Part shown: positions 1 through 34,600 of the stretch, in pieces | How the letters are laid out: every line of letters begins with the position of its first letter | Position numbering within the stretch: the stretch's first letter is position 1 | Notes under the pieces: model-generated | The model's database searches: none | What the model saw: only the letters and a program-made list of their open reading frames with translations | What the model was told of the DNA's origin: nothing | Assembly (NCBI GenBank): GCA_000165345.1 | Contig: CM000429.1 | Coordinates: 480,001 to 544,000 of the forward strand | DNA: 64,000 bases | Reading direction: 5' to 3' | Translations under genes and position numbers: made by a program

Positions 1-73
1 CAGTCACTTAGAAAAAAAGAATTTTAATTTTTGCAGGTCATTTCCATTATTCTTTTATCCACTCTCAATAATT

Positions 74-3000
74 ATGCAGAATAAAATGTTTAGTGATTTA
101 AGGATTCAAGTAATAATTTTGAACATAATCTTGCCAATTTTTTTGGAGTTATTTATTATTAAAAATATTTATGCAAATAACATAGAACCAAATCAAAAAA
201 ATATTTGCTTTGAAGAAATATTTTCAAATCTTAAAATCGAATATACTCATGGTTGGGATTTAAATAAACTGAAAAGCACTTTTCAAAACAAGTTTGATAA
301 TGAATTAATGAAAGACCTGATTTTAAGTATTTTGATATCAGATCTTAATCACCAAATATTTGATGAAAAGACAAAACTAGAAAATATTAATTCAAACAAC
401 TACTCGAATATTAAAGGCTTTTTTTCAATTTTCCAACTTTTACTTAATTTCTGGGACAATAAAAAGGCAGAATTTAGTGAGGATTTTAACTTAACTCACT
501 ATATAAATTATATTATATTGGATGATAATTTTCAATTAAATGATAATTATTCAATTATTCAAAAAAATAGAAAATCTTTTTTTGCACTAATTAAAAAAAA
601 TAATTTATATATTGAAGATTATAATAGTGCGTCCGCCTTGTATCTTCATTTCATAAATATTAGTTTGCGTCGCTTAACTCACCTTCACGCATGCAATTAT
701 GATTCAAATAATCTTAATATGTTTGAAATATATAATAGTATTTATTTATTATCGATTAATACACTAAATATATTATTGGAAATTTTATCTGAAGAACATA
801 AACAGGAAATTGCTGTAAAAGAAATACTACCAACCTTGATACAATTTTTATCAAATAGCAAGCATTTTAACAAAGACTCCTGCTTTACCCAATATCAATT
901 ACGCCTTGATAGAGTTAATTCAGCAAATCATTCAAACGATTTGTCTGTAAAGTACAATTACAAAGAGCCCATAGTTATTTTTGAAATATTTAATTTTATT
1001 AATTCTAATATCATGAAATATGTAAAAATTCAAAATGAAGAACTAGTTCTTGATGAAATTAATAAAATAATAAATGACTTATTAATTATGAATATTGAAA
1101 AATGGATTTATCATTATGTGGCATTAAATGACAGTTTAGTAGTTAGCAAACTTCTTGAAATTGCTGATCAGATATTAATACTTATCATGAAGAATAAGAA
1201 AAATAAATTAAACATATGGGTTACTGAAATCTTAACATCAAAGAATTCTGCACTAAAAAAACTGATTGTAAAAAGGAGCGTGGATAATATGTCAATATTA
1301 TTCAAAATTTTAGATTACTTTTTATTAACGAATAAAACTGAGGTTTTTATATCTGAAATTTTTCCTTACTTAATAGATCAATTAAACGATAAAGATATCA
1401 ATGTCAAATATGAATTCTGTAAATTGATTATACATATTATGGAAAAAATGGAAATGATATTTATACTTCCCTACGGTAAATTTTGTATTGAAAAATGTTT
1501 AGGCGATAAAGAATTCATTATAAAATTAATTGGTTTAAGGTCAGCAAATAAAATATTTAACAGAATAATTTTTGTTGAAAACAAATTAGGCATTAATGAA
1601 TCTGAGATTATTATTCATGAATTAATTGAATCTATTATTACTAACCTCGAAAGTATACTATTTATTAAGTATTATCCACTTATTAAAGAAATTGGAATTA
1701 CATTAAAATACATATACAACTATTCAAGAAAATACAATGATTGGTTAGTCTTTTTTTTATTTTTGAATAAATTCTTTAGAATAAAAGAAAAGAACACAAA
1801 ATGTTTAATAAATATATTTAAACTAAGTAAATTTTCTAGAAATGAGTTTTTGATCTATTATTTCAAAGACATGTTTAAGGACGAAGATAAATCTGCAAGT
1901 GAAAATTACAAAATGGCATCTACAGTTAAACAAGAAAATAATCAGATTTATCCACCTACTTACACAGAATTAATATTGTATACCTTGCCATGTCTTATAA
2001 ATCAATTGAGTTTAAATGATAAATTTGAGCAGATTGTTTTTATTTTATCTTTGATTCAAAAAGAAGCGAAATATAATATTCGAAAACAATTTATTCATGA
2101 TGCATTAAAACTTTTAACAAGAAAAAAAATTTATAATCAATTGTGCGAGCCAGATTTTAAAAAGCCACTACCTATTATTAAAGGAGAATATTTAGGGTCA
2201 ATTTATAATCATAGCAAACTCATTTCTAAATATGATAACAATACAAACATAGGTAATGGATTTAATATTTATCAGAAACTTCTATATATCAATGAAGAAA
2301 TTTACTCTTGTTCTACAAATAATTCAATTAATGCTGGAATATACTTGCATAAGTTAAATGTTCATGATAAGCTTCATTATTGGAATTTAATTACTGATCA
2401 ACTTAATAATTATATTTTTAAATTCAATAATAATAGTTTTGTGACTAGTATGATGACATTATCAAATGAATTTAGCATTATTACAGGGAATAACATTGGA
2501 ATCTTATCCAAAATTAATATTGATACAAGTATAATAACGGTTAACGAGCATTCATATAAAAATGAAAATTTGTTATTTAAACAATGCAGCTTCTTAAATT
2601 CAAAATCCCCAATTATAATATTTGTTGGAAAGATAAAAATTTATTCTAAAGAATTGATTATTTCTGCATATAGTAACGGGGATATATATTTTATTGAATC
2701 AGAGAGGTTGCAAACAGAAATCAGTTTCTCAATTCCCCTATCTTTGGGGAGTGTAATTGACTATTCAGTTGACAATAATTCTAATGATCATTTAATTTCA
2801 TTCGCCACTGATGAAAATATAGTTATTATTATTGATTTATTTTATTTGAAGAGTATGAAAATTTGGAAAATTGATCATGAATTAAGAATTACAAATATTG
2901 GTAGTTCAAATATTAATGATCAATCTTCAAAAATATTGCTTAACTTTAATAGAAATGGTGCTTTTGCACTTTTTGATCCAATTAGTGGTGAAATTGATTC

Positions 3001-3550
3001 TAATGTAGATTTTAAATTCCGGATAACCGAAATAAAAGAAAAGTTCATTCATATTCACAGACCATTTTTGTTTTCATCAAAAATGGTTCACACAGACTTT
3101 AAAAGCATACAAAAGTGTAATTGTCTATATTGTCAAACTCAAAGAGTTAGAATTTTTGGAAATTATTTGAATCAATATCAAATAATGAATCAATACCATA
3201 ATACTACGGTTAAAAAGGAGCGTCTAGTTAATAGAAACATTATTGGGCCGTTTAGTACCACTCATAACAACTTCATAGGCAAAGGACAATGTGCAAATAA
3301 ATATTACATTTTTAATGATGAAATTGGTAACGTTTATCAACAAAGCTTCCTCGACTCTAATTTATGTTATACAGATTCATTTGATTGTATAATTAGTAAA
3401 TACTCAGCGCAGACAAGTTTAATTGGTGTAAACAACGAAAACAAAGGGCATAAAGACTTAATCACATCAATCAGCATATACTCATTTAGTAATGATGAAA
3501 TCGGATTACTTACATCTTCAAGAGATGGTATTATTTCTTACTGGAATTGA
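74..3550 (+). CDS. Large hypothetical protein (1158 aa), N/I/K-rich, with a WD-repeat-like C-terminal tail (..LLTSSRDGIISYWN)
   Basis: Uninterrupted 3.5 kb ORF starting at a true ATG (74-76). No family motif recognised by eye. The composition matches the rest of the window. Confidence 0.45.
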   Translation: MQNKMFSDLRIQVIILNIILPIFLELFIIKNIYANNIEPNQKNICFEEIFSNLKIEYTHGWDLNKLKSTFQNKFDNELMKDLILSILISDLNHQIFDEKTKLENINSNNYSNIKGFFSIFQLLLNFWDNKKAEFSEDFNLTHYINYIILDDNFQLNDNYSIIQKNRKSFFALIKKNNLYIEDYNSASALYLHFINISLRRLTHLHACNYDSNNLNMFEIYNSIYLLSINTLNILLEILSEEHKQEIAVKEILPTLIQFLSNSKHFNKDSCFTQYQLRLDRVNSANHSNDLSVKYNYKEPIVIFEIFNFINSNIMKYVKIQNEELVLDEINKIINDLLIMNIEKWIYHYVALNDSLVVSKLLEIADQILILIMKNKKNKLNIWVTEILTSKNSALKKLIVKRSVDNMSILFKILDYFLLTNKTEVFISEIFPYLIDQLNDKDINVKYEFCKLIIHIMEKMEMIFILPYGKFCIEKCLGDKEFIIKLIGLRSANKIFNRIIFVENKLGINESEIIIHELIESIITNLESILFIKYYPLIKEIGITLKYIYNYSRKYNDWLVFFLFLNKFFRIKEKNTKCLINIFKLSKFSRNEFLIYYFKDMFKDEDKSASENYKMASTVKQENNQIYPPTYTELILYTLPCLINQLSLNDKFEQIVFILSLIQKEAKYNIRKQFIHDALKLLTRKKIYNQLCEPDFKKPLPIIKGEYLGSIYNHSKLISKYDNNTNIGNGFNIYQKLLYINEEIYSCSTNNSINAGIYLHKLNVHDKLHYWNLITDQLNNYIFKFNNNSFVTSMMTLSNEFSIITGNNIGILSKINIDTSIITVNEHSYKNENLLFKQCSFLNSKSPIIIFVGKIKIYSKELIISAYSNGDIYFIESERLQTEISFSIPLSLGSVIDYSVDNNSNDHLISFATDENIVIIIDLFYLKSMKIWKIDHELRITNIGSSNINDQSSKILLNFNRNGAFALFDPISGEIDSNVDFKFRITEIKEKFIHIHRPFLFSSKMVHTDFKSIQKCNCLYCQTQRVRIFGNYLNQYQIMNQYHNTTVKKERLVNRNIIGPFSTTHNNFIGKGQCANKYYIFNDEIGNVYQQSFLDSNLCYTDSFDCIISKYSAQTSLIGVNNENKGHKDLITSISIYSFSNDEIGLLTSSRDGIISYWN

Positions 3551-3769
3551 TCGTCAACATTTATTCGCGCCACTTCTTAGCTGTCTAGATAAATTATGAT
3601 GAGTTATATTAAGAGGGGTGTGAAAAACAGCTTGATCAATATTTGAAGTACTTTTCTAAGATCTAAAAGCATAACAATTTCTAAAATTGAATTTGAACTT
3701 TACTAAAATAACAATACAATAATTTTTCCGCAATTTTAAATGTATTACTTATGATTAAGAAATGAAACA

Positions 3770-6559
3770 ATGGCTGTTGGAAATATCAATTCTAATGACG
3801 AACTTGAAGCTGCTATGAAAAATATGAAGAGCCATGATTCAAATAAAAGAATACAAGGAATTCAGCTATTTGCTGACGTAATAAAAACAGATTGCAGTCT
3901 CTTATCAATTGAATACATTAAAAAGCTTCAAATTGTTTTTGAATGTGAGCACAATATAGAAGTGCTATTGCAACTTTCTAAATCGTGTACAAATTTGGGT
4001 TTGATTTCACTTTTCGAGGAGCAAATTTGTGGGTTAAATATTAATGAGTTTGATTTCTTTAGTAAGGGTTGTATTTTTAACGCTGCAAAACAAATCATAT
4101 ACAATGCCTACGATGATCTTTCGACTAGATTTCATACACATAAAAGAAAATCAAATAAAAATTCATTATTTACCATAGAAAAAATAATAACTTTAGTACC
4201 AATCTTACAAGACATTGCTGAACTTGATGACGTATATGTAAGGCTAGAAACAATGAAATCTCTCAAATCACTCATTAATATTATTACATTTCTTATTGAA
4301 GAAAACTTAAATAACATACACAAAAGTACTGAATATAACGAATTGGAATTAATATTCAATCATTCTCTTGAAATTTTTCAGAAGTTGGCAAACTCTGATA
4401 TTCTTAGCCACAAAATTCTATCATGCCATATTATTCCTTTAATACTGGAGCAGAAAAGACTTTCTGAAATTTTTGTTGATGAAAAAAATATTTTACTTGC
4501 TAAATATTCAGATTTTTGTGTCCATCCTGCACCTATTTTAAGAAAACATGCATCTAAAGTGTTCAATGCTATTTTGGAACAAATTGAATTTGAAGAAGGT
4601 ATTATCGAAATTCTCTTATTTCCAATCATTAGGAATTTCTGTTGCGATGAGCAAGAATGTGTGAGGCTAATTGCAATAGAAAATATAGAGGCATTTTTCT
4701 TACAAGTTTTCGAATTGGCCAACTCTAATAAAGAATATATTAAAAAAGTAATTATTTTTTTTGAAAAGCTACAACCTTTTATATTTATTCTTTATAATGA
4801 TGTAAGCTGGAGGATTAGATCTAATGTATCAAGGCCGATAATTAATATTTACTCAAAATTGTCTCGCTTGGTTACTTCCAGTGAAGCAGAAAATATTGAT
4901 ATTCATCGTATTAGAGAGCAATCAATAATTAAATCCAATCAAGTAAAAAATGAAAATCTAAAAATTGTGGGCAATGAGAACGAATCACAAAATTTAGATA
5001 TTTCAATCGATGGGGATAACTTGTGTTCGCATCCTTGCTCAAAAGATAATTCAAGCGTGAACGATATAGACTATTTAAATAAGCTAGCATTGATTCTAAC
5101 TCAATTATTGATGGATCTAGAGTCTGAAACAAGAATTAGCACCCTTTCAAACGTACTAAAAACAATTGAAGAACAAACAATTGAGTCCAGGCCCACTATC
5201 ACAGATGATAAATCACCAATCCCATATATTTCAAAAATTTTGTTTTATGATGTAATTATTCAACAAATAAATAATTCAAATACTCTCCTAACAGATCAAA
5301 ATGCTGCAGTAAGAATTAATCTATCAAGAATAACAAAAATTATAATGCTAGTTAAGACAAACTTTGAAATTGACGAATTTATGAATATTGAACTCGAAAA
5401 TGCCTTCGATCATTTAGTTACAAAATTGACTCATGATGAGGACGACCAGGTGCGACAAAGCGTTGTATTAGCTCTCTGCTCGGGAGTCTCCGAATCAACT
5501 GACATTAACTTTTTGATAAAAAAGATAGTCTTACCCCACTCAAGCTCAATGATTCAGGATAACTTTTGGCGAGTTAGGTATTGTTCCATTATTCTTCTCA
5601 TTTTATCGCTTTATAAATTGCTATCATCGTACTATGAGGAGGACGAAATTTGGAATTGCAAGATTAATTTTAACAATGATGAAAACACTAAAGATTTTTT
5701 GAATTATTATGAAGGAACTATAGATGTTTTGATAGAGCTCATAATTATGAATATTACAGACAAGACGAGCATCATTAGGCAGCTTACTTCCATTTTCTCA
5801 TTGCCATTATTATCTTCTTGGTTCGGACTTCAATGGACAAAAAACCAACTTTGGAGTAAGGATATATTACCAATGATAACAAACGAAAAATCATATATAA
5901 TGCGGATAACTGGGTTACTTTCAGCTAATTCAATAATATCGGGAGTATGCATTCGTTCATTCAAGGAGCTGCTAGATGTTATTAAGCACGTAATACAGCT
6001 TATTTTAATTGTAGCCCCTACACTAGATCCAGGAAACGAAGATTATCGGCCTTATCAAGAACATTTAGAAGTCATTAATAGCCAATTGACCGCGAATCAA
6101 AGTGGTCGAAATGAACTTATAAAAAATACCGAATTCTTAAATAGTGGTTTAGCGCAAAAGAATATATCTAGCTTGAGCTCACAAAGCAATCATCTAAATG
6201 AATACCTTCCTTTGATTAATGCTTCAAATCTAACTTTGTCTCTTAATCCATCAGACAAAAACCATAATACTAGAAAAAAATCTGAAAGTATCCCATTCGA
6301 CTTCAGTGAGTTCCAATTAGAGATTATTTCAGTGGTCCTACAATACTCTGTAAATGACATAGTTCCAAACGTTCGGGCAAAAGCGTTTCAAACGATTAAC
6401 TCGATCATTGATCGAAATGGATTAGGAAACTTCCAGAAATCAGTCGTCGACCAGGTAAAATATTCATATGAAAACGATCCAGATTCTGACGTCAGGACTT
6501 ATTGTCGATATATTTTGAAAAAAACCATGGAGGACGAAATAAATGAAGATTATAACTAA
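3770..6559 (+). CDS. Hypothetical 929-aa protein, probably an alpha-helical repeat (HEAT/ARM-like) protein
   Basis: Long ORF starting at a true ATG. It shows repeated amphipathic helical segments (e.g. VRAKAFQTINSII, QVRQSVVLALCSG) but no catalytic motif. Confidence 0.4.
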   Translation: MAVGNINSNDELEAAMKNMKSHDSNKRIQGIQLFADVIKTDCSLLSIEYIKKLQIVFECEHNIEVLLQLSKSCTNLGLISLFEEQICGLNINEFDFFSKGCIFNAAKQIIYNAYDDLSTRFHTHKRKSNKNSLFTIEKIITLVPILQDIAELDDVYVRLETMKSLKSLINIITFLIEENLNNIHKSTEYNELELIFNHSLEIFQKLANSDILSHKILSCHIIPLILEQKRLSEIFVDEKNILLAKYSDFCVHPAPILRKHASKVFNAILEQIEFEEGIIEILLFPIIRNFCCDEQECVRLIAIENIEAFFLQVFELANSNKEYIKKVIIFFEKLQPFIFILYNDVSWRIRSNVSRPIINIYSKLSRLVTSSEAENIDIHRIREQSIIKSNQVKNENLKIVGNENESQNLDISIDGDNLCSHPCSKDNSSVNDIDYLNKLALILTQLLMDLESETRISTLSNVLKTIEEQTIESRPTITDDKSPIPYISKILFYDVIIQQINNSNTLLTDQNAAVRINLSRITKIIMLVKTNFEIDEFMNIELENAFDHLVTKLTHDEDDQVRQSVVLALCSGVSESTDINFLIKKIVLPHSSSMIQDNFWRVRYCSIILLILSLYKLLSSYYEEDEIWNCKINFNNDENTKDFLNYYEGTIDVLIELIIMNITDKTSIIRQLTSIFSLPLLSSWFGLQWTKNQLWSKDILPMITNEKSYIMRITGLLSANSIISGVCIRSFKELLDVIKHVIQLILIVAPTLDPGNEDYRPYQEHLEVINSQLTANQSGRNELIKNTEFLNSGLAQKNISSLSSQSNHLNEYLPLINASNLTLSLNPSDKNHNTRKKSESIPFDFSEFQLEIISVVLQYSVNDIVPNVRAKAFQTINSIIDRNGLGNFQKSVVDQVKYSYENDPDSDVRTYCRYILKKTMEDEINEDYN

Positions 6560-8648: not shown

Positions 8649-9494
8649 TTATTCACGAAAATTAAACATATAGTTGCTATTATTATTTCCTGGGGGGAAA
8701 AACATATCATTATCAGGGATAGTAGTCCCGCCTGGAATGGAAGAAATGGGAATATTTTTTGGTTTACCGAATATTTTTGGTTGGTTTTTGAAAATAATAC
8801 TTTCTGGCCCTACTAAGCTTCCTCTAACACCATTACTATCAATTAAAGGGTCAACGCTCTTGCGAAAATTGTTTCCAATATATTCTTCAAAACTCCTCTC
8901 AGTTTCTAATAAAGGCTCACATTTTATTATAGGAATTTTATGCCCTTCTTCTATATTAATTTTTGAATTGTTATTATAAATTTTATTTCTATTAAAGAAT
9001 CCATCAATTTCATTTCTAATCAAACCTGATAATTCAAACATCAAAGATTCATTACTACTGTAGTTTTCTGATATTTTAAAGGGAAATTCCAATTTCATGG
9101 CTTCTCCTATTAGATTGCTCTTCACTGATAATTGAACCGATGTTTCAGAAGAGTTTAAGTCAAAGATTAATTCTGGTATTACTTTTTCGATCTTTTTAGA
9201 GCAAATTTTGCTTATATAAAATAGTCTATTTTTTTTGCTTTTTGACCTCCAGTTTGAAGGCAATAACTCCATTGAAATACTATCATCCCGTGAATTTATG
9301 GGAACTCCAAACTCTTCGCTAATGCATGTGTGATCTAGGGTGTTATCTATTTCGTCATCTTCACCTTTAATGGATTTAACTGGAATGAATCCAAGGTCTA
9401 ATAATATTGAATGAGTTATTACTAAAACATTCTCATATAAATCTTCTGGATTTGCGTGCTTAAATAAAATATGTATCCAAAATGATCTATCCAT
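8649..9494 (-). CDS. PI31-like proteasome inhibitor/regulator
   Basis: The N-terminal region resembles the PI31/Fub1 N-domain (ELLPSNW.., VLVITHSILLDLGF). The C-terminal Pro/Gly-rich tail (PISSIPGGTTIPDNDMFFPPG) resembles the PI31 proline-rich region. This is a by-eye similarity only. Confidence 0.4.
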   Translation of the reverse strand: MDRSFWIHILFKHANPEDLYENVLVITHSILLDLGFIPVKSIKGEDDEIDNTLDHTCISEEFGVPINSRDDSISMELLPSNWRSKSKKNRLFYISKICSKKIEKVIPELIFDLNSSETSVQLSVKSNLIGEAMKLEFPFKISENYSSNESLMFELSGLIRNEIDGFFNRNKIYNNNSKINIEEGHKIPIIKCEPLLETERSFEEYIGNNFRKSVDPLIDSNGVRGSLVGPESIIFKNQPKIFGKPKNIPISSIPGGTTIPDNDMFFPPGNNNSNYMFNFRE

Positions 9495-9590: not shown

Positions 9591-11660
9591 TTATTTTAAT
9601 TTTAGTTTATCCCCATCGTCGAGCATTTCCACAAAATTTGCGGTTTCAATGAAAGGCCTTTTTGTAATCCCTACGTTGGTTACAGAACATCCATGAGCGA
9701 ATGTGTGGCTTGTCTCGAACTCTATCTTTGATGGATTCGTAATATCGCTAATTGTCAATATCAAGTTGTATCGACTAATATTTAGTCTAACTTGCAATAC
9801 CATATTAGTTTTAAGAATTATTTGGTCTTTTTTCCCATTTTCATAGTTTATTCTAGATCTTAGATTATACACGTCATTAGTCTGAAAAGCACTACCAAAA
9901 CATCTTTCCATAAAATCATAGTAAAAAATTTTTGGTACTTGTGATGTATTTTTCGCTTCAGATGACCCCCTACAGCATACTCCTATCCTTATTCTACCCA
10001 TGTATGTCTTGCATACCTGCACCTGCCAAATCATGTCTGATACAAGTCTGTAATCGCCAATCGTCCATGCCCACTTGTATTTACCCGATACTGATGTCCT
10101 TCTTGCGAGTGAGATAGGATAAAGACCTAAATGTGTATTTGTTGTAAACTCGTTATTTTCCTTCCAAGGCACCAAACGCCCACTACCCTCATTTCCCAAC
10201 AACTTATTAAGTGCTGCGTCTAATAATAGTGAATCTAGCTCTTTTGTTCGGATTTTAAGCAAATCATGAGGTGCCATTTGTTCAAATCTAATGTTTTTTA
10301 AAAATTCTAGAGAGTTTTTTCTTTTATTTGAAAGTAAGCCCATGCTGCTTTCTCTCTGGACTAAGTATAACTTTAATGCCAAGAATATATCAATCTCTCC
10401 CATAATGATCCTTTCACTCTTCAACACTTTCAACAATACGTCAGGGCCAAGTGCTAAATGAGGTCCTTTAAAAAGAGCTTGTGCGCAATCTGCTAACAGA
10501 TAAACTGTTAGCTCTATCAATCCCTCCATTTCCAATGATTCTGCAACTGAAGACATCTGAACGATTATATCAATATTCAATGGAGAATTTAACATTTGAA
10601 ACAATTCTTCCTCTAGCAATTGCACTTTAAACCTTCTTGCTTCATGTAATACTGTTAGAATTAAATATGGATTTGCTCCTCGCAAAGAAGTAGTATGGCC
10701 ATAAATAAATAATAATAACATTCTGACTGCTTCAGGGTAAATCGCCTTTATTTTATATTCCGGTCTAAGTAAGCTGGCCTTAATTTTATCTAATTTATTC
10801 TGCAAATTTTGATCATCGTAATTTAAATTAAATTGCTCATTAATTTCCTGTCTGGATTCCATTATTTGATTAATCTCATCGCGCATTATCGGCGATGCCA
10901 AACTTAATAAATTACTATGCACTGGTATTCTTAAAGAGGATACTGGTGGCAATATTCTCGAATCCAATTCATCTAAAGATACTAATTTTGACCCGTTATT
11001 AATAAATTCATTTTGAGCCCTCTTAACTAAATCTCTAGTATTTAAACTCGGTAGTGAAATTAAATTATCATTACCTTTATTTTTCGATTTCGTGTACTCA
11101 CTGTCTACAAGCGAAGACGAAAATTGAATAGCCTTTATTTTTTTAATTTCCTCCATCTTCTTCATGTTCTTTTCAAATAACTCGGTTGCCTTATCATTAG
11201 GTATAAGTACAATATCAAGATCGCAAGTAGGCTCCTGAAGATAAATGTCTTTCGCCGGAATCCTTCCAATAGGGTCAATAGCTAAAGATTTGATCTGTAC
11301 TGAATCATCACTGTCATTCATATTCTTTTCTCCAACTGTATTATATAGTCTATTCAAAATAACCTCTTTTTCAATTGAAATAAGTTTTGGAATGATACTT
11401 TCAAGAGTTACATAATCTAAATCATCCACTTCTCTAACTAAAATACTTCCCTTATTATCGAAATATCCTTCATTAATCCATTTTATCATTGTGGAAGCCG
11501 AAAATGGTCCAATTAATTGATCTTTATCATCACGGAAATAATAACCCGATTCATTGGCCAGTTTCTTTGTCCTACCCCCATCCTTTCTCTCTAACCTTTT
11601 CTGAGAAGGTTTCATATTTGAGTTCTCCACTCTTTTAAATCCCTCAAGTTTGCCAACCAT
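9591..11660 (-). CDS. GYF-domain + BTB/BACK + PHR-like protein (paralog A)
   Basis: GYF consensus YYFRDDKDQLIGPFSASTMIKWINEGYF, a BTB-like block (LRIPVHSNLLSLASPIMR) and a C-terminal PHR-like beta region (KWAWTIGD..GVCC). The track's 'M' is a TTG, so the start was moved to the first ATG (MVGKLEG). Confidence 0.6.
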   Translation of the reverse strand: MVGKLEGFKRVENSNMKPSQKRLERKDGGRTKKLANESGYYFRDDKDQLIGPFSASTMIKWINEGYFDNKGSILVREVDDLDYVTLESIIPKLISIEKEVILNRLYNTVGEKNMNDSDDSVQIKSLAIDPIGRIPAKDIYLQEPTCDLDIVLIPNDKATELFEKNMKKMEEIKKIKAIQFSSSLVDSEYTKSKNKGNDNLISLPSLNTRDLVKRAQNEFINNGSKLVSLDELDSRILPPVSSLRIPVHSNLLSLASPIMRDEINQIMESRQEINEQFNLNYDDQNLQNKLDKIKASLLRPEYKIKAIYPEAVRMLLLFIYGHTTSLRGANPYLILTVLHEARRFKVQLLEEELFQMLNSPLNIDIIVQMSSVAESLEMEGLIELTVYLLADCAQALFKGPHLALGPDVLLKVLKSERIIMGEIDIFLALKLYLVQRESSMGLLSNKRKNSLEFLKNIRFEQMAPHDLLKIRTKELDSLLLDAALNKLLGNEGSGRLVPWKENNEFTTNTHLGLYPISLARRTSVSGKYKWAWTIGDYRLVSDMIWQVQVCKTYMGRIRIGVCCRGSSEAKNTSQVPKIFYYDFMERCFGSAFQTNDVYNLRSRINYENGKKDQIILKTNMVLQVRLNISRYNLILTISDITNPSKIEFETSHTFAHGCSVTNVGITKRPFIETANFVEMLDDGDKLKLK

Positions 11661-11735
11661 TATCAATATTTAAATTTTAACAAACCCTTAATATAAAAAG
11701 ATAACCACACATGCCGCCTATTCTGTTTTGACAAT

Positions 11736-13985
11736 TTATTTAGATCTATTGGTTTTTTGCTGCCTTGTTATAGTTAAAAACGATGGTATACCAAGCGAAT
11801 CTCCTGGATCCAGCATCTCAATAAATATTTTCGTTTCTATATAAGGTTTTTTACTAACTTCAAGTCTTTCCACAAGAAACCCGTGATCATAATAATTTTC
11901 GATGTAAGTTCCGCAATCAATACTTTCGATCCTTAATAAAACGGAATAATCATGAATTGAAACTACTAAATGGTACATTTGACCTTTTTCTATGCGGCTT
12001 TCAAATGCCATAGTTTGTTTATATAAATCTTGAACATTATCTTCACTAGTAGAACTTCGAAGCTTTGTGCCCGGCATCTCATTAATTTTGGAATCTTTAT
12101 TAGTTTTCCATATCGAGTTACCAAACCTGAAGTTGTTAACTTTAATATTCTCTCTTTTAATAACTGATGATCTAATCCTTGAAGTACATTGAAAAATATT
12201 ACTACCCAAAAATGCGGAAACAAACTCTTTTTCCGAAAAATCATAATAAAAAACCTTCGACATTCGAATATTTTGAGTTTCTGTTATCACAGGTTTACCT
12301 GTACAACAAACCCCAAGTCTAAGTTTTCCTCTGAAAGACTTTAATACCTTAAATGCAAATGTCATTTCGCTAATCAATCTCGAGTCTCCTGTCGTCCATG
12401 CCCATCTTGATTGGAATAATCCATTGCTATTTAGATTTAGCTTTCCAGATCTAACCAGCCCCACAGGATACTCACCGTCTCTATAAATTACATTATACTC
12501 TGAATTTGGTAGCCATGGTTTAAGTCTGCCTTCTTCTTCACAATTCGTCAACTTCTTTAATGCTGCATCCAAAATTAAACTATCAAGTTTTTTTACGCGT
12601 ATTGACTTTAATTCTTCTGCTGACATTTGATCATATCTGACAAATTTATATATTGCAATCTCTTTTTTATAATCACTTTGTTCAAAAGATTCTGTCCATA
12701 CTCCGACTTCAATTTCTTTTTGTTGTATAAAATGCTGTGTTGCATAAAACACTTGTATTTCGTCCATCATCACATAGTTATTTTTAATTAATTTTACATA
12801 AGCATCAACACTTAGTGCTAAATATGGTCCTTGAAGTATATAACTTGCACAACTTGCAATCATTGTTATAATTTCATCTACCAATTTTGGGAATTTTAAA
12901 ATTGCTGCTGCCGCTGCGATTTCAATCAAGTCAACAATATCTAGCTTAGTAGAAAATAAATGTATTAATAACTCATCTTCTAGTTTCTTGAACATAAAAC
13001 GCCTAGACTCTTTCCACATAGATACTAACAACAATTTATTCATTGATAGAACTTCGGATGTATGGCCATACATATAACGTATTATTGCTTGAAAGGCAAT
13101 TGGACAGTCAGATTCAATTGTAAGAACTGGATTAATCAAGCTTTGCTCTCTTTCTTCAATTGTGCATTGACCTGCTGCAACCCTTTCTCTAAGTCTGAAA
13201 TGTTCTTCGAATAGTGTTTTCATACTATTTTTAAGTAAAGGTGACGAGGTTGCCAATACACTGCTATGCACATTAATTTTTAATATGGGTGCAAAAGCAA
13301 ATGAATCATTATTTTTAAATTCTTCATTTCCAAAGAATTGTTCGGCATAATTTTCAAAATATGGAGCTGAAAGGTTATATTTTTCATCTTTAAATTCCAA
13401 TGGATTCCCCATAATTTTTGTATTAATTGCATTGACTTGATCTACGAAAATCGCTGTAATATTTGACCTTGTTGTATGCATTTGCGCTTGAATATCCGTA
13501 GCTTTTAATGATGGTTTAACTATTAATATTAAATCCTTATGTTGGTCATCATTCTCCTCTAATAATTTAATTTGGTCATCAATTAACGTTATTTCTTTAA
13601 CTTCAATAGGCTCCGCTTGTTTTTTTTTAATACTTGATGTTTTATTTGGGCATATTTTCCTTGAAAAGTTCATTTCAGCCTCATTTAGTAGTTCTGGAAG
13701 TATTTGTTCAAGGGAAACTCTTTCTGCAGGGCTACTTGTCAAATTTCGAAACAATAGGTCACCTTTACCATCAAAAAATCCATTCCTAATCCAAGTCAAT
13801 ATTTCGTTCGAACCAAATGGGCCTTGTTCGACACCCATTTCATCAACAAAACAATATTGACTGTTATTAGCTATATGCCCTATTTCCTTTTTATTTCTGC
13901 TTTTATTAAATAATGTCATTAAGAAGTCTTCATAAAAGGGTTTAATGAGATTTAATATTTCATGCAAATATTCGTGCATGCGCAT
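11736..13985 (-). CDS. GYF-domain + BTB/BACK + PHR-like protein (paralog B, tandem duplicate of the upstream gene)
   Basis: Same architecture as paralog A, with a GYF motif (YCFVDEMGVEQGPFGSNEILTWIRNGFF). It aligns with A along its length, e.g. RWAWTTGD vs KWAWTIGD and LGVCCTG vs IGVCCRG. True ATG start. Confidence 0.6.
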   Translation of the reverse strand: MRMHEYLHEILNLIKPFYEDFLMTLFNKSRNKKEIGHIANNSQYCFVDEMGVEQGPFGSNEILTWIRNGFFDGKGDLLFRNLTSSPAERVSLEQILPELLNEAEMNFSRKICPNKTSSIKKKQAEPIEVKEITLIDDQIKLLEENDDQHKDLILIVKPSLKATDIQAQMHTTRSNITAIFVDQVNAINTKIMGNPLEFKDEKYNLSAPYFENYAEQFFGNEEFKNNDSFAFAPILKINVHSSVLATSSPLLKNSMKTLFEEHFRLRERVAAGQCTIEEREQSLINPVLTIESDCPIAFQAIIRYMYGHTSEVLSMNKLLLVSMWKESRRFMFKKLEDELLIHLFSTKLDIVDLIEIAAAAAILKFPKLVDEIITMIASCASYILQGPYLALSVDAYVKLIKNNYVMMDEIQVFYATQHFIQQKEIEVGVWTESFEQSDYKKEIAIYKFVRYDQMSAEELKSIRVKKLDSLILDAALKKLTNCEEEGRLKPWLPNSEYNVIYRDGEYPVGLVRSGKLNLNSNGLFQSRWAWTTGDSRLISEMTFAFKVLKSFRGKLRLGVCCTGKPVITETQNIRMSKVFYYDFSEKEFVSAFLGSNIFQCTSRIRSSVIKRENIKVNNFRFGNSIWKTNKDSKINEMPGTKLRSSTSEDNVQDLYKQTMAFESRIEKGQMYHLVVSIHDYSVLLRIESIDCGTYIENYYDHGFLVERLEVSKKPYIETKIFIEMLDPGDSLGIPSFLTITRQQKTNRSK

Positions 13986-14064
13986 GCCAATATATTAAGA
14001 TAATCATGAGGAAAAAAAAAACAAAAAGTAAATAAAGGATCAGATTTAATAAATAATATTTATA

Positions 14065-15222
14065 TCACTCAAACCTTTTCTTTTTTCTAGAATCAGTATG
14101 ATTTGACCTTTCCTCTTTTTTGCATAGTCTGCAAGTGCATGTAAAATGATAATTCTGGATAAGGCTTGTTCGTTCAGCCAATGGAAGAGTGTTATCAACA
14201 TATGAAATAGTTAGTTCCTCCCCCTTCATAATATCTCTATTTGTTGTAACATATATTGTGCTGTCATCTATAGTATATACATGGCAATTCGGGTCACAAC
14301 TATGGTTGAAACATGATTGTATTACGCATATACACGCACCTTTAATAATTCCAATTGTAGGTTCATTATCAGATATGTTTCTATTATCTAACTTACCTGA
14401 AAGATGAAGACCCCAAATATTTAATCCTTGTGAATTAAGGGTTAATTGACCAACTATTTGTTCAATTGTCTCCCTACTAAGTAGTGAATCAATGATAAAA
14501 CTATCAGAGAAAGAATCATTTATTTGATCGGAAAGTACGCTATGAATGCAATTTATAAGAGAATTGAAGTTAATTTCAGGGAACAATGCTGTAGTTGGGG
14601 CTACAAAGTTTTCCATTGATTTAGTTCCTAATTTATATGCATGATACAAATTTTCGTCTTTCATACCCAGTTCTTGCCAATAAAAATAAATATCTGCAGC
14701 CATTTGGGCAATGCAACGGGATACTGCTTCAGCTGTTATTGGAATATCCCCTAATTTATCTACGGATCTTTGGTAATTTCTTAAATTCAAAATACCCTTT
14801 GTACCATTGATATAATAGCCCCATCCACTCCTTAATGAAGAGGAATTTGGATCATAATCTTCAAAGTTAACTCCTGATATTTTTTTAAAACAAGATCTAC
14901 TGCAGATCTTTTTTTCTAATCCGAGCGTACTTAACGATAAAAAACCACTATTTTCAGGGTAATTAATCTTTAGGCAATTTTCGCAAAAAATCAGATTTTC
15001 TAGTTTAGCAAATGAAGTTTTAATTGGCCATGAAATGTAGGGTACTTCTTGGAAAAAATTTGTACCATCTGGAATCTCCTTGCTAGAGTGAATATGTTTT
15101 CCTTTATTTTCTGAATAGAAAATATCAAAATAATTCTCATTCCCTGTCAAGGAATTTATTTCATCCAATAAAATGTGGTAATTATTTTCGATTTCGCACT
15201 TTCCCTCAATACAGCTATCCAT
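14065..15222 (-). CDS. SET-domain protein lysine methyltransferase
   Basis: SET C-terminal signature (NHSCDPNC.., ELTISY) followed by a Cys-rich post-SET (FTCTCRLCKKEE). True ATG start. Confidence 0.65.
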   Translation of the reverse strand: MDSCIEGKCEIENNYHILLDEINSLTGNENYFDIFYSENKGKHIHSSKEIPDGTNFFQEVPYISWPIKTSFAKLENLIFCENCLKINYPENSGFLSLSTLGLEKKICSRSCFKKISGVNFEDYDPNSSSLRSGWGYYINGTKGILNLRNYQRSVDKLGDIPITAEAVSRCIAQMAADIYFYWQELGMKDENLYHAYKLGTKSMENFVAPTTALFPEINFNSLINCIHSVLSDQINDSFSDSFIIDSLLSRETIEQIVGQLTLNSQGLNIWGLHLSGKLDNRNISDNEPTIGIIKGACICVIQSCFNHSCDPNCHVYTIDDSTIYVTTNRDIMKGEELTISYVDNTLPLAERTSLIQNYHFTCTCRLCKKEERSNHTDSRKKKRFE

Positions 15223-28852: not shown

Positions 28853-30844
28853 ATGGCTCTGCAAGATACAGCTTCAACTGCGGGGATACTAGCAGAGTTG
28901 AATAATAGATTAACCTCATATGAGAGCACAATACGTGAATTAAGGTCAAAAAATAGGGATTTCGTGAATAGGTTAAGAGACAACCAACAAATTAGAAAAG
29001 ATTTATGTATCAAAGTTAATAGTTTGCAAAATGACCTGGAAAAAAGAGATAAAGAATTGAAAGCGCAAAAGGAACAAAATAAACAACTTAAAAAAAGAGT
29101 TGCAAATTTAAACGAGTTAAATTCCAATTATCAAAATAAAATTGAGCAACTCAAATCTGTTTGTGAAAAATTACGCAATAATGCAAAAAATACTGAATTA
29201 AATTTCTCTGAGGATCTAAACTCATTAAATACCGAAAATACAAATATATCATCAATTAATAATATCAATGAAAAAAGATTATTCAAAAATACGAATGACA
29301 ATAACAATATCAATTGTAAAAGTACAGAAAATTGCAGCAAAAATGCCTCATCAAGTTCAAGTGTATTAAATGAAACTACTAATATTAATCTTCAATCAGC
29401 ATTGCAATCAAACCAAAATAAGTCGCTCTTAGTTAAGAAAGGCGACTTGAAGTTCTCAGTTGAAGAAATAAATGATTTGAATATGAAATATATTCCTGTT
29501 CCTGATGATCCAATAGACAGAGCAATTGCAACCTTTACAAATAGCAGGGAAAACAAAATTCTTTTTACTAGGGTTAAACAAGGCACATATGTTTATGGAA
29601 GGCTAATGGTTGAGGCAAAACTTGTAACAAAGCCAGGAGTTGACAAAAACAAACCTTTGCTACGTATTGTATCTAGAGGGAAGCTTTATACTCTTGCAGA
29701 TTTTGTAAATACACACGAAAACGAAGAACTTAATAATATCGAGGATAGTATACGAAATCAAAATGGTAATTTAGTATCAGATGGCCAAGCGTTAGTGGTA
29801 GCTTCTCCCCTTAATAAATTTAGAACAACTCAAGTTTTAACTCCATCTTCACCAATAAAGATTACAGCTTCACCTTTGCAACAAAATTCTGCAAATTCGG
29901 TGGCATCAGCTACGAGCATTCAGCATTACATGCAAAGCCCACTATCATATACTTCTAATAGGATTCCCATCATTGACCCAAAACATAATCAAGGAGTTAA
30001 TTTACAAAACTACATGGTTAATTATCCCAATAATACCCATGAGATGATGTTGTCAGCGCAAAATGCAAACTCAATTGTTACGCCAACATATTATAATAAT
30101 ATAAATGGTATGCATCAGCTTAGTCCTATCAATCATAAAAACGCATCGTTTATGCAATTACAATCTATTGTTCCACAACAACAGTTTCCTTACTACCACC
30201 ATTTAACTGAAAGTTCAAATTTAAATAATCAATTTAACCAAAATTTAAGTTATCATTCAAAATCAAATGTTCCAGTACTTGCACCTCCGCCTGTTGCAGA
30301 ATATATGCCCGTAACAACACCTATTATTATGGCAAGGCAACCGATAAATGCATTAAACTACTCAAATAATACTTCTGGTATTCAACAAATTCCAACTCAA
30401 AATAACTCACAAATAGGAACTAAGTCTAATGAAACCAAACCTCTATCAATAAGTAATAAATTAGAGTGTAATATTCAACAAGAAGAAACAGAAGTAAAGG
30501 ATTTAAATAATTCATTGTCGCTTTATTCAATTTCAAACACGAACCAACAGCAATATCAGCCATTAGAAAGTACTAATATTCAAAACACAAATGTAGTACA
30601 TTCAAATAAGAATGAAACAAGTTCAACAAAAGATATTGGTAATTATTCACACCTTGAAGATGATTTAACTTTAAATAAAAATAACTCATTAACTCAAAAA
30701 AGTCCCATTAAACAGACATCATCTCCAATAAAATCAGTAAGTGCTTCCACTATTGGAGAATGGTATAGGCAGGCTAATATTATGAAAAGATGTAATAGTT
30801 ATAGTTGTGAAAATTTTTCTGTTACATCTAATAAGAATGCTTAG
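28853..30844 (+). CDS. Coiled-coil protein with a central globular (GAR/CH-like?) module and an N/S/Q-rich low-complexity C-terminus
   Basis: The ORF track start at 28805 is a GTG; the first ATG is at 28853 (MALQDT). A heptad-rich N-terminus is followed by the block YVYGRLMVEAKLVTKPGVDKNKPLLRIVSRGKLYTLADFV. Confidence 0.45.
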   Translation: MALQDTASTAGILAELNNRLTSYESTIRELRSKNRDFVNRLRDNQQIRKDLCIKVNSLQNDLEKRDKELKAQKEQNKQLKKRVANLNELNSNYQNKIEQLKSVCEKLRNNAKNTELNFSEDLNSLNTENTNISSINNINEKRLFKNTNDNNNINCKSTENCSKNASSSSSVLNETTNINLQSALQSNQNKSLLVKKGDLKFSVEEINDLNMKYIPVPDDPIDRAIATFTNSRENKILFTRVKQGTYVYGRLMVEAKLVTKPGVDKNKPLLRIVSRGKLYTLADFVNTHENEELNNIEDSIRNQNGNLVSDGQALVVASPLNKFRTTQVLTPSSPIKITASPLQQNSANSVASATSIQHYMQSPLSYTSNRIPIIDPKHNQGVNLQNYMVNYPNNTHEMMLSAQNANSIVTPTYYNNINGMHQLSPINHKNASFMQLQSIVPQQQFPYYHHLTESSNLNNQFNQNLSYHSKSNVPVLAPPPVAEYMPVTTPIIMARQPINALNYSNNTSGIQQIPTQNNSQIGTKSNETKPLSISNKLECNIQQEETEVKDLNNSLSLYSISNTNQQQYQPLESTNIQNTNVVHSNKNETSSTKDIGNYSHLEDDLTLNKNNSLTQKSPIKQTSSPIKSVSASTIGEWYRQANIMKRCNSYSCENFSVTSNKNA

Positions 30845-30988
30845 TGATATTTAGATTTTTTGTGTGATAAATTTAAAAATTCTGGGGAAATATCGATAAT
30901 AAGTATTTTATGATTAGCGTTAAAATTTGTGTGTAATTCGAGTGCTAAATTAATTGTATATCGTTTGCACTAGTCAAATTATAAATAG

Positions 30989-31335
30989 ATGTCGCACTTA
31001 ATTATAACATATTTCGAGAACCTAAATCCATCGCTTTGTAATGTAAGTTTTACAAAAAATTGATAACTAAAACTATCTTCTTCCAGATAAAATATCTATG
31101 TGATAATATTGTTCAAGGAAACTTGGATTGCGGAAACAAATCATTCGAAAGTATTAATTTTAGAGCAAAAAAAGGAATAAGTTCATTTAAAGGTTTAATG
31201 ACAAATAAAATTAACGAGAATTTTTTACAAGTGAAAGATTCAGAAAAGAAGAGTGAAAATATTGAACTACTAAGTGAAATGCTAAATGCAGCAAATAAAG
31301 CGAAACAAATAGTAAATTCTCTTAGAAAATCTTGA
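30989..31335 (+). CDS. Small two-exon gene (~101 aa, product unknown)
   Basis: ATG at ~30989. Exon 1 (MSHLIITYFENLNPSLCN) ends directly before a GTAAGT at ~31043. A ~44-bp intron ends at ttccAG (~31086). Exon 2 continues in frame into the 31060 ORF, whose track 'M' is a TTG, through to a TGA stop. Confidence 0.3.
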
Positions 31336-31638
31336 ATTAAGTTTAAAATTCTAGGATGAATTAGAAATTCAAACAAAAATTTTGTGGTTTATATATAAAG
31401 GAAAGGGTTTTAGTATAAAACTAGAACTACCTTTTACTTTCTGTAGTTTATCTCCTTTATTCAGGTTATATTAAAATTTTTGCATGTTTAATTGCATTAT
31501 TTGGCGCTAATGTAATTTTATTTGACACGAAACTTAGGTCTCTAAAAACTTAATTTAAATAACTCTCGATTTCATTCAATAGATGAACAATTATGCCCAA
31601 ATATTAACCAATTTATAATACAAACTTAGTGGAATAAG

Positions 31639-34600
31639 ATGCCTTTATCAAACTACCATAATGAAAGTATTAAAAATATTTGGTTTGGAAATTATTCTCG
31701 AAAAAATGGGCCTAGTCTAATAAAAAAAATCAATATTAATAAAAACACAATTTCATTCATTAAAACGGTATCTCAATTATTAATTATTGATATAATTTTT
31801 ATTATATCTAATATCTATATTAACAGATACATGCTTTCTTTTAAAAGCATTTTTATGTTGGCAATTAATATTCCAATAATATATTTATCTTTGTTTATTT
31901 CACAAAGATTAAATATTTGTTCCTCTGAATTTGTATCGAATCTGGAAAAAAAATTAAATTTTAATACGCTCGAGTCTGGGATTTCAAGTAACAAATTATT
32001 GAGTCTTGAGATTCAATGCTTAAATTCCCTTCGCTTAATAGAAAATGGTTTGATTTCTATTGTTCACTTAATACTTTATCCTGTCAGATTTGGTTTCTTT
32101 GGCTATATTTTTTTTAATAGCAACTGGAATACTTTTTTATTTGTGAATAAAGTTATAGAATTATTCATTTTTACTACAATTTTTGAATGTTTGAGAATTA
32201 AATTATTAATTATTCCTGAACAAAAATCACTTATTATGAACATTAGTGATTATTTTGATAGCTTGAAGACGCTATTACTATTAAGTAACCATAGAGAAGT
32301 TTTCATAAATACACAAAAAATCATTGACTTTACAAAAGGATTATTAAGTTATATACTTGTAATATTTCAAAGTATTTGCACGATGTACCTTGTTTTTAAA
32401 ATAGTGCATTTTTTCAATGAAAAGTCACATGAATTTGGCTTATCACAAATCTATATATTCAATTATTGGTTTGCAATCTATTTACTTTATTCAACAAGAT
32501 ACATTAATTCATGTATCCATTTCATTATTAATTATCGTTATTTTGTTACTCTTTTTCAATTACCCAGTGATACTGGATTAAATTATAGCTTTATACCACA
32601 AAAGATAAGTTATTTCGATAAAAATCATCAAGAATCCGATAAAAATCAAATTTCAGAGCCTTTAATTGATTTCAAAGATTCAGGTAATGAATTTAAAATA
32701 AAAAATAATTACGATACTCTTAACAAAAAATATTCATTAATTTACAATATTCACGATAGTCTGGATAACAGATTCCAAAAAAATTATTCCATTTCAAAAA
32801 AAGTTTCTGATACAATTAATGTTATATCCAATGGAACCAACATTGGTAATGATAATTATGATACCTTAGAAAATGATCATGAATTTAATTTTCAAATTTC
32901 AAATAATTTGTTTAATTCAACAATTATTACTTATAAAAATTTATCAATCTCTGAGAATAAATTTAAAAAACAAATTCACAATTCAAGCAATAAATTTAAG
33001 TTTTTGTTTAATTTATTTGAAAAAAAAATGGGACAAACTAATTATTGTTTAAGCGATCATTGCAATAATCATATGGAAATTACTGACAAGGAATTAATGG
33101 AACATAGATTTTATCTAAATAATATAAATTTATCAATTAAAATGAATGAAGTAATTATTATATTTGGGTCTGATGATAAAAGTAAAGAATTATTAACGAA
33201 ATTTGTTTCTGGATTTCCTGGAATTCAGAGTAATGAACAACTCAAATCTCATTCGACAAATCTTCTCAATTACGATGTTTTTTTAATGAATAGAAAAATG
33301 CTTGAATTTGTCTCAAATTTTTTTGAATATCAAAATTCAGAATTTATAATAGACCCATTCGATTTCATATTATCTGGAAAACCATTTAACAAACATATTT
33401 TTGAGTTGATATATGACTCATTTTTATCTCAATATTTTACGAAGATTGAACCTTCGCATGTGAATTCTGAGACAATTAAAAATTATATTTATCCAAAAGT
33501 TGAAAGTATTCAACAATTTGTCGAGGCAAAAATATTTTTACAACTTTCTCAGTTCTTTTATAACATTTTGACTACGCTTGATAATTATTCATTCGCAATT
33601 GTGATTATTGATGGTATTTTTGAATTATTACTTCCAGAAACTTACATTAAACTAGTTGAAAAGATATTACCGAATAATTCAATATTTTCAGAGTTTAATA
33701 TTTCTTTTATTATTACAACGAATAGTGATTTATTCCCATATTTATCTTATTTATATCAAAATAATTCATATGTCAAGTTGGCAGTGATTAATACGGGAGG
33801 ACTATATTTTACCAAAGATAATTACTTGAAAGTGGAAATTAAAAACAAATTTGTTGAAAATTTGCCGTCAATAGATAATACAATAAATGAAATTTTTAAT
33901 ATTAAATTAAAGAATAACAATACTTACCCTTGTTCAACAAGTATTTCTTCTATCAGCAGATTATTCTTTAAAAGATTTGAAACTAGGAATTTTTATTCAA
34001 GCAAATATTTGATCTATGTTTTTTTTATTGCACTATTTTCATTTACTGTAAAATTGACGATATTTTCTTGCCAGCACCTGACGAAGAATCACAAAAATGT
34101 TAACAATATTTACGACTTTTTTGTATTTGAAACTCTATCTTTTTACCCTCTATACTCGCTAGTTATAACTTCAAGAAATTCTTATTCAAATGGTTTATCA
34201 AGCATACTAATAGGATACGGAGTAATTTCATCGCTTATGCTTAATAGTTATAATGCTTTTTTTTCAGAATCAAACTTCTTGAAAAATAACGAAGTCGTTT
34301 TCAATGAAGGAGAAGTTGATAATTTTGAGGAAATTCCGGAATTTTTGAGAGATATACCAGAAAAACATTACAGTTCCTCACATTTTATTCAATTTAACGG
34401 AAAACAAATATTAAGGACAGAATCATTGTTTTACAAGGATCATTTTCTTAGCTCAAAGACAATAAATATACCTGGAATCAAGCCTAAAGGATTTAATAGT
34501 GCTCTAATTTCGTCCAAGAAAATAAGAAATATCTTAATATGGAAATCAAAAAAAGAATCTAATATTAAATTGTTACAAAAATATGAACAATTTACCATGG

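Follow-up and report, generated by a model that had tools for sequence, protein, structure and literature searches.

The preconoidal P2 ring of Toxoplasma, which caps the conoid, is described by a 3.3 Å electron cryo-microscopy (cryo-EM) structure (PDB 9ya0; Zeng et al., 2025, Nat Struct Mol Biol, PMC12819142). The ring consists of ~46 repeats of a 20-protein unit and carries the formin FRM1, AKMT2, MyoL, and SEC23/24 (Zeng et al., 2025). Among six newly named P2 subunits is PCR14 (TGME49_311880), which is present in two copies per repeat (chains KA and KE). The study’s conservation table gives a PCR14 homolog for C. parvum, P. falciparum, Babesia, Theileria, Hammondia, Eimeria, and Neospora, and P2/P3-like rings are visible in C. 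parvum by electron cryo-tomography (Zeng et al., 2025). Here, we describe a stretch of Cryptosporidium chromosome 1 (the window; 64,000 nucleotides of GenBank assembly GCA_000165345.1, contig CM000429.1, positions 480,001 to 544,000 of the forward strand) in which two adjacent minus-strand genes encode relatives of PCR14. These genes, referred to as copy 1 and copy 2, correspond to C. parvum CPATCC_000195 (Q5CSL8) and CPATCC_000194 (Q5CSL7), respectively. They are probably Cryptosporidium in-paralogs of PCR14 that act as fixed structural subunits of the P2 ring.

A tandem gene pair homologous to PCR14

Copy 1 occupies positions 9591..11666 (-) of the window as an open reading frame (ORF) of 691 amino acids (aa), with its stop codon at 9591-9593, and copy 2 occupies 11736..13985 (-) as an ORF of 749 aa. 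The gap between the two ORFs is 69 bp. At 99% identity, copy 1 matches a C. hominis ‘GYF domain-containing protein’ and copy 2 a C. tyzzeri protein, which puts the DNA within the parvum/hominis group of Cryptosporidium. A first-pass annotation, made from the sequence alone, had described the two genes as adjacent, colinear, and much-diverged paralogs. This description holds because the ORFs align end to end: full-length BLASTP of copy 1 against copy 2 gives 283 bits, E=3e-89, 29% identity, and 51% positives, which is far above chance. The motifs quoted in that annotation are also present, namely GPF....M..W...GYF in copy 1, with the variant GPF....I..W...GFF in copy 2, and KWAWTIGD or RWAWTTGD followed by GVCC.

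Sequence and fold both connect the pair to PCR14. A joint profile matches the PCR14 of 9ya0 with E=2.2e-79 in three stretches that cover the GYF, BTB-BACK, and C-terminal regions. In single-sequence phmmer searches, PCR14 is the only PDB match (E=3.5e-50 for copy 1 and E=4.1e-48 for copy 2). A profile of the C-terminal domain likewise has PCR14 as its sole match among PDB sequences (E=3.1e-66). The window pair matches the fold of the solved PCR14 chains; Foldseek aligns the copy 1 model with 9ya0_KE at E=1.5e-21. The first-pass annotation had not recognised the pairing of GYF with a BTB-BACK scaffold as a known arrangement; the domain combination is already published as PCR14, including a C. 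parvum homolog (Zeng et al., 2025).

The TTG start given for the 691-aa ORF of copy 1 stems from the ORF lister; in public models the protein begins two codons later, with the ATG at 11660 (689 aa), which is the probable true start. For copy 2, public models use either the first ATG (749 aa) or Met23 at 13919 (727 aa); comparison with orthologs supports Met23 as the likely start, and copy 2 residues are given below in the 727-aa numbering.

Domain architecture

Both copies have the same architecture, consisting of a GYF domain, a BTB domain split by two insertions, a BACK-like domain, and a SPRY-like domain. The first-pass annotation had placed a GYF domain at the beginning of each gene, and the Pfam scores agree. 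The GYF domain of copy 1 (aa 42-87; 11406..11543 (-)) scores 33.6 bits with PF02213, above the gathering cut-off of 25.7 bits. That of copy 2 (aa 22-88; 13656..13856 (-)), which carries the GFF variant, scores slightly under it at 22.6 bits. Orthologs do score above this cut-off: a precomputed PF02213 match is present in three copy 2 orthologs, and the copy 2 model shows a confident beta-beta-alpha-beta-beta fold in this region. Residues Y42, D46, G53-P54-F55, W63, G67, and F69 of the signature are invariant in 18/18 Cryptosporidium sequences, which include both paralogs.

GYF domains fall into subtypes, and those of the CD2BP2 type carry Trp at the position of D46. The short loop and the invariant Asp D46 point to the SMY2/GIGYF subtype for both copies. 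The closest PDB GYF domains by profile are those of GIGYF2 (E=2.6e-5) and GIGYF1 (E=1.9e-4). SMY2/GIGYF-type domains recognise PPG plus a following hydrophobic residue. Scanning the window for such PPG-hydrophobic motifs, as candidate GYF ligands, is uninformative because the single match sits inside an antisense ORF.

The BTB domain is genuine and passes the Pfam threshold only when its insertions are removed. In copy 1 it spans aa 146-362 (10581..11231 (-)), with insertions at about aa 158-242 and 267-298. The native sequence scores 19.0 bits with PF00651, below the cut-off of 20.5 bits, whereas the sequence with the insertions deleted scores 30.3 bits and spans profile positions 10-107 of 110. 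In copy 2 the split BTB domain covers aa 127-321 (12957..13541 (-)); strand beta1 lies at 130-136, ahead of a disordered insertion (159-208) and the core (213-321). One BTB insertion falls exactly at the usual cullin-contact loop. A phi-phi-Glu motif with an invariant Glu (I-M-E in copy 1 at aa 268-270, ~10857-10865 (-); L-F-E in copy 2; V-V-E in Toxoplasma) sits near the phi-x-E site of CUL3 adaptors, but it lies inside a long inserted helix in the model.

A BACK-like helical domain follows at aa 363-495 in copy 1 (10182..10580 (-)), where it is colinear with the BACK regions of orthologs, and at aa 322-470 in copy 2 (12510..12956 (-)). Pfam BACK (PF07707) has no match in either window protein. 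It is passed by homologs from Eimeria (26.9 bits) and Theileria parva (28.6 bits) and by the homolog P0027 (23.4 bits), against a cut-off of 20.9 bits. The copy 1 region aligns with PCR14 residues 229-420 and beyond. A structure model built from a shallow, Cryptosporidium-only alignment reached a predicted local distance difference test (pLDDT) score of 56, and the BACK-like region of copy 1 was of low confidence in it; a 33-sequence alignment gave a pLDDT of 73.9. Over BTB and BACK, the model aligns with KLHL11 (220 aa), vaccinia A55 (175 aa), and KBTBD2 (201 aa). The presence of BACK in the pair is thus supported by homology and predicted fold, not by a direct sequence score. This evidence bears out the BTB assignment of the first-pass annotation and favours its BACK assignment.

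The C-terminal assignment of that annotation, a PHR-like domain on a BTBD1/2-like scaffold, did not survive. PHR (PF08005) gives no Pfam signal in the full proteins, their homologs, or the isolated C-terminal domains. The top fold matches of the C-terminal domain include no PHR structure, and fold searches lead to SPRY/B30.2 instead. After PCR14, the next Foldseek matches are the SPRY domains of RanBP10, RanBP9, HERC1, and ASH2L. The Pfam SPRY family has no match in any of 11 C-terminal domains at E<=10; the SPRY fold assigned to this domain is a call from modelled structure, outside the reach of the Pfam sequence model. In copy 1 the predicted SPRY/B30.2-like beta sandwich covers aa 496-691 (9594..10181 (-)) and holds KWAWTIGD...GVCC, and in copy 2 the domain covers aa 471-715 (11775..12509 (-)). 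The copy 2 domain contains an insertion of ~36 residues (aa 597-632; 12024-12131 (-)) that is predicted to be disordered, varies between species, and is absent in copy 1. In C. felis, copy 2 has a short deletion just ahead of this insertion.

Distribution and age of the duplication

At E<=0.001, an exhaustive HMMER search returned 38 proteins. Of these, the ~21 best matches and a few lower ones also align outside the GYF domain and make up a single family, whereas most others match the GYF region only. Named members come from Selenidium, Eimeria, Cystoisospora, Neospora, Cardiosporidium, Theileria, Babesia, and Chromera velia, with one match per named outgroup species among the matches listed. 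A word-indexed homolog search with the family alignment as query returned copy 1 orthologs only. The homologs from the piroplasms Theileria and Babesia (P0024, P0025, and P0059) are 457-517 aa long, begin at the BTB domain, and are without GYF. The GYF domain has thus been lost in the piroplasm lineage, and it is retained in Cryptosporidium, the coccidia, and the archigregarine Selenidium. A partial protein from Chromera velia (Cvel_24005, P0033), annotated as ‘BACK domain-containing’, matches the BACK region (query 314-514) with E=1.4e-7. Because of this match, the family may predate parasitic apicomplexans and reach back to free-living, pseudoconoid-bearing relatives.

Both copies are found in intestinal members of the genus as well as in the gastric C. 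muris, C. andersoni, and C. serpentis. Gene order in C. muris matches that of the window: AAA ATPase, SET, a 730-aa gene, a 701-aa GYF gene, a 310-aa gene, and GlnRS. In a neighbor-joining tree (552 columns, 300 bootstraps), the two copies group in a single clade with 96% support, and each copy is monophyletic with 100% support. The span of both copies across intestinal and gastric species, the C. muris synteny, and the 96% clade place the duplication on the Cryptosporidium stem, specific to this genus and older than its radiation. The first-pass annotation’s impression of an old duplication is thus right.

The two copies have since been conserved separately. BTB core identity between C. parvum and C. 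muris is 83-89% for copy 1, whereas that between the paralogs is 29-39%. SPRY identity within the copies is 69% and 58%, as against 37% between paralogs. Some 125 alignment columns show no variation in any of the 18 sequences. Because identity within each orthogroup is far higher than between paralogs in every domain, these comparisons speak for two separately constrained proteins that would not be redundant.

Proposed role and alternatives

The paralogy of the pair, its architecture, its sequence and fold homology to PCR14, the timing of the duplication, and the synteny are established in this analysis. The proposed structural role in the P2 ring, which bears FRM1, MyoL, and further initiators of actin-based gliding, follows from the orthology to PCR14. 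In 9ya0, 447-464 of the 728 PCR14 residues are modelled, which is approximately the size of the BTB-BACK-SPRY core. By this count, the core would pack into the ring, and the N-terminal GYF domain would form an exposed, flexible arm for binding a proline-rich ligand, expected to be PPG-hydrophobic. The conservation of the GYF cradle in both paralogs implies a proline-rich partner. The listing of PCR14 at two copies per repeat suggests that its two sites in the ring are non-equivalent. Since one Toxoplasma protein would fill both, each Cryptosporidium paralog may have specialised for one of them; such a split would mirror the homologous PCR4/PCR5 pair of the same ring. That the sites are divided between the paralogs and that both GYF arms recruit PPG-hydrophobic partners where gliding actin starts is a more tentative proposal, and we regard it as possible but rather doubtful in its full form.

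Several points limit this reading. The assignment of PCR14 relied on the density map and mass spectrometry, with no individual tagging or depletion, and its CRISPR fitness score of +2.34 marks it as dispensable in tachyzoites (Zeng et al., 2025). The importance of PCR14 is therefore unproven. The absence of the GYF domain from the modelled part of 9ya0 is deduced from residue counts and not from coordinates. The tree was made by a distance method from outgroup sequences that are partly incomplete. A literature search by TGME49_311880, CPATCC_000194/195, and Q5CSL7/8 found only the paper of Zeng et al.; no paper names the Cryptosporidium gene identifiers, and no localisation, expression, or interaction data were found for either protein. 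PCR14 is not mentioned in the MyoL preprint, and the GYF proteins of the PPKL paper are different genes from this pair.

The resemblance of BTB-BACK plus a substrate-binding SPRY domain to cullin-3 (CUL3) adaptors raises a different explanation, the one suggested by the first-pass annotation, in which both proteins serve a cullin-3-type ligase: BTB-BACK would dock the cullin, and the C-terminal beta domain, perhaps together with GYF, would capture the substrate. The conserved phi-phi-Glu motif near the usual cullin-contact site and a third cullin-domain protein encoded by C. parvum are consistent with this idea. However, the PHR and BTBD1/2 analogy behind it failed, and the BTB domain is broken by two insertions, including the one at the cullin-contact loop. 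Orthologs are also kept in Plasmodium and piroplasms, although Plasmodium cullins are of the SCF and CRL4 types only. Furthermore, P2 contains the Toxoplasma ortholog as a stoichiometric structural subunit, and neither a cullin nor RBX1 is named in the text or the component-table portion of the structural study (Zeng et al., 2025). We therefore consider an adaptor role unlikely, while it need not exclude a structural role in the ring.

Both ORFs are intact in all sampled species, across the deepest split of the genus, and are still in tandem, which argues against the possibility that the pair is redundant or that one copy is a decaying duplicate without a role of its own. One PCR14 gene does suffice in Toxoplasma and is dispensable in culture (fitness +2.34; Zeng et al., 2025). 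In addition, copy 2 is the less conserved copy between C. parvum and gastric species (53% identity, compared with 60% for copy 1), and its GYF domain scores below the Pfam cut-off. Nevertheless, both copies hold every invariant GYF, BTB, and SPRY residue, and the excess of identity within orthogroups over that between paralogs extends to every domain, so redundancy or decay is very unlikely. Less probable still, and in our judgement close to negligible, is a role as cytoplasmic GIGYF/SMY2-like proteins that would regulate mRNA translation or decay through GYF, unrelated to the apical complex. GIGYF2 and GIGYF1 do provide the nearest PDB GYF domains, but the likeness is confined to ~40 GYF residues, whereas the other ~600 residues are homologous to PCR14 throughout. 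GIGYF-like function was rejected because of this restriction. Because the piroplasm orthologs drop GYF and retain BTB-BACK-SPRY, GYF is best viewed as an accessory module of the PCR14 family.

With the pair read as PCR14-type ring subunits, two ‘hypothetical / GYF domain’ genes of a diarrhoeal pathogen are tied to a structurally solved part of the invasion machinery, and the C-terminal domain call is corrected from PHR to SPRY. The old, genus-wide duplication would provide a natural test of how one two-site subunit is replaced by two specialised subunits, and the conserved GYF domains point to a proline-rich partner at the start site of gliding motility. The PCR14 family, its structure, and its occurrence in C. 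parvum were already published, and current understanding is not overturned.

Neighbouring genes

The window is AT-rich, with ~30% guanine-cytosine (GC) content and closely spaced ORFs. The GC fraction drops to 0.23-0.27 at positions 1-4000 and 30001-36000 and is ~0.30-0.35 elsewhere. Directly upstream of copy 2 lies a SET-domain gene (14065-15222 (-), 385 aa; Pfam SET, 46.6 bits), which adjoins the PCR14 pair in C. muris as well. Its nearest solved relatives are SMYD3, SMYD2, and SMYD1. Among the PDB matches listed (E<=0.001), SMYD1-3 and one KMT2A SET domain are found, and there is no apical-methyltransferase chain. AKMT2 is a P2-ring subunit; no support was found for the SET gene as an AKMT/AKMT2-type apical methyltransferase, and no link is claimed.

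The C. hominis protein OLQ15983.1 (1102 aa, ‘SET domain and MYND-type zinc finger protein 6’) appears to be a gene model in which the SET gene and copy 2 are fused (11736-15222 (-)). Such a fusion, as an annotation artefact, would explain the SET proteins in the 90%-identity cluster of copy 2. Directly downstream of copy 1 is an ORF of 281 aa (8649-9494 (-)) with a weak, sub-threshold match to the PI31 N-terminal domain (19.1 bits; cut-off 21). In C. muris, the counterpart position holds the 310-aa gene.

Comparison with other known systems

Toxoplasma PCR14 is a single gene whose product takes two positions per repeat, whereas Cryptosporidium has two tandem genes with 29% identity. Copy 2 also differs from Toxoplasma PCR14 by its additional disordered SPRY insertion, and the Cryptosporidium pair is known here from sequence and models.

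The BTB-BACK-Kelch adaptors of CUL3 (KLHL/KBTBD proteins, including KBTBD2, KLHL11, and KEAP1) share with the pair the BTB and BACK-like folds, their order, and a C-terminal protein-binding beta domain. Unlike these adaptors, the pair has a SPRY-like C-terminus instead of a Kelch propeller, an N-terminal GYF domain, and a BTB domain split by two insertions, and the known member of its family is a structural ring subunit. The pair differs from BTBD1, BTBD2, BTBD3, and BTBD6 in that no PCR14-family member has PHR by Pfam, and the top folds are SPRY/B30.2.

Similarity to SPRY/B30.2 proteins (TRIM PRYSPRY, RanBP9/10, HERC1, SPRYD3/7, ASH2L, and SPSB) lies in the fold, with identities of 6-12% only and a silent Pfam SPRY model. 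To our knowledge, SPRY/B30.2 proteins are not typically paired with BTB-BACK and GYF. With the SMY2/GIGYF GYF domains, the pair shares the GPF-x4-[MIL]-x2-W-x3-G[YF]F signature, the short beta1-beta2 loop, and D46, but it is without GIGYF-like regions outside this domain.

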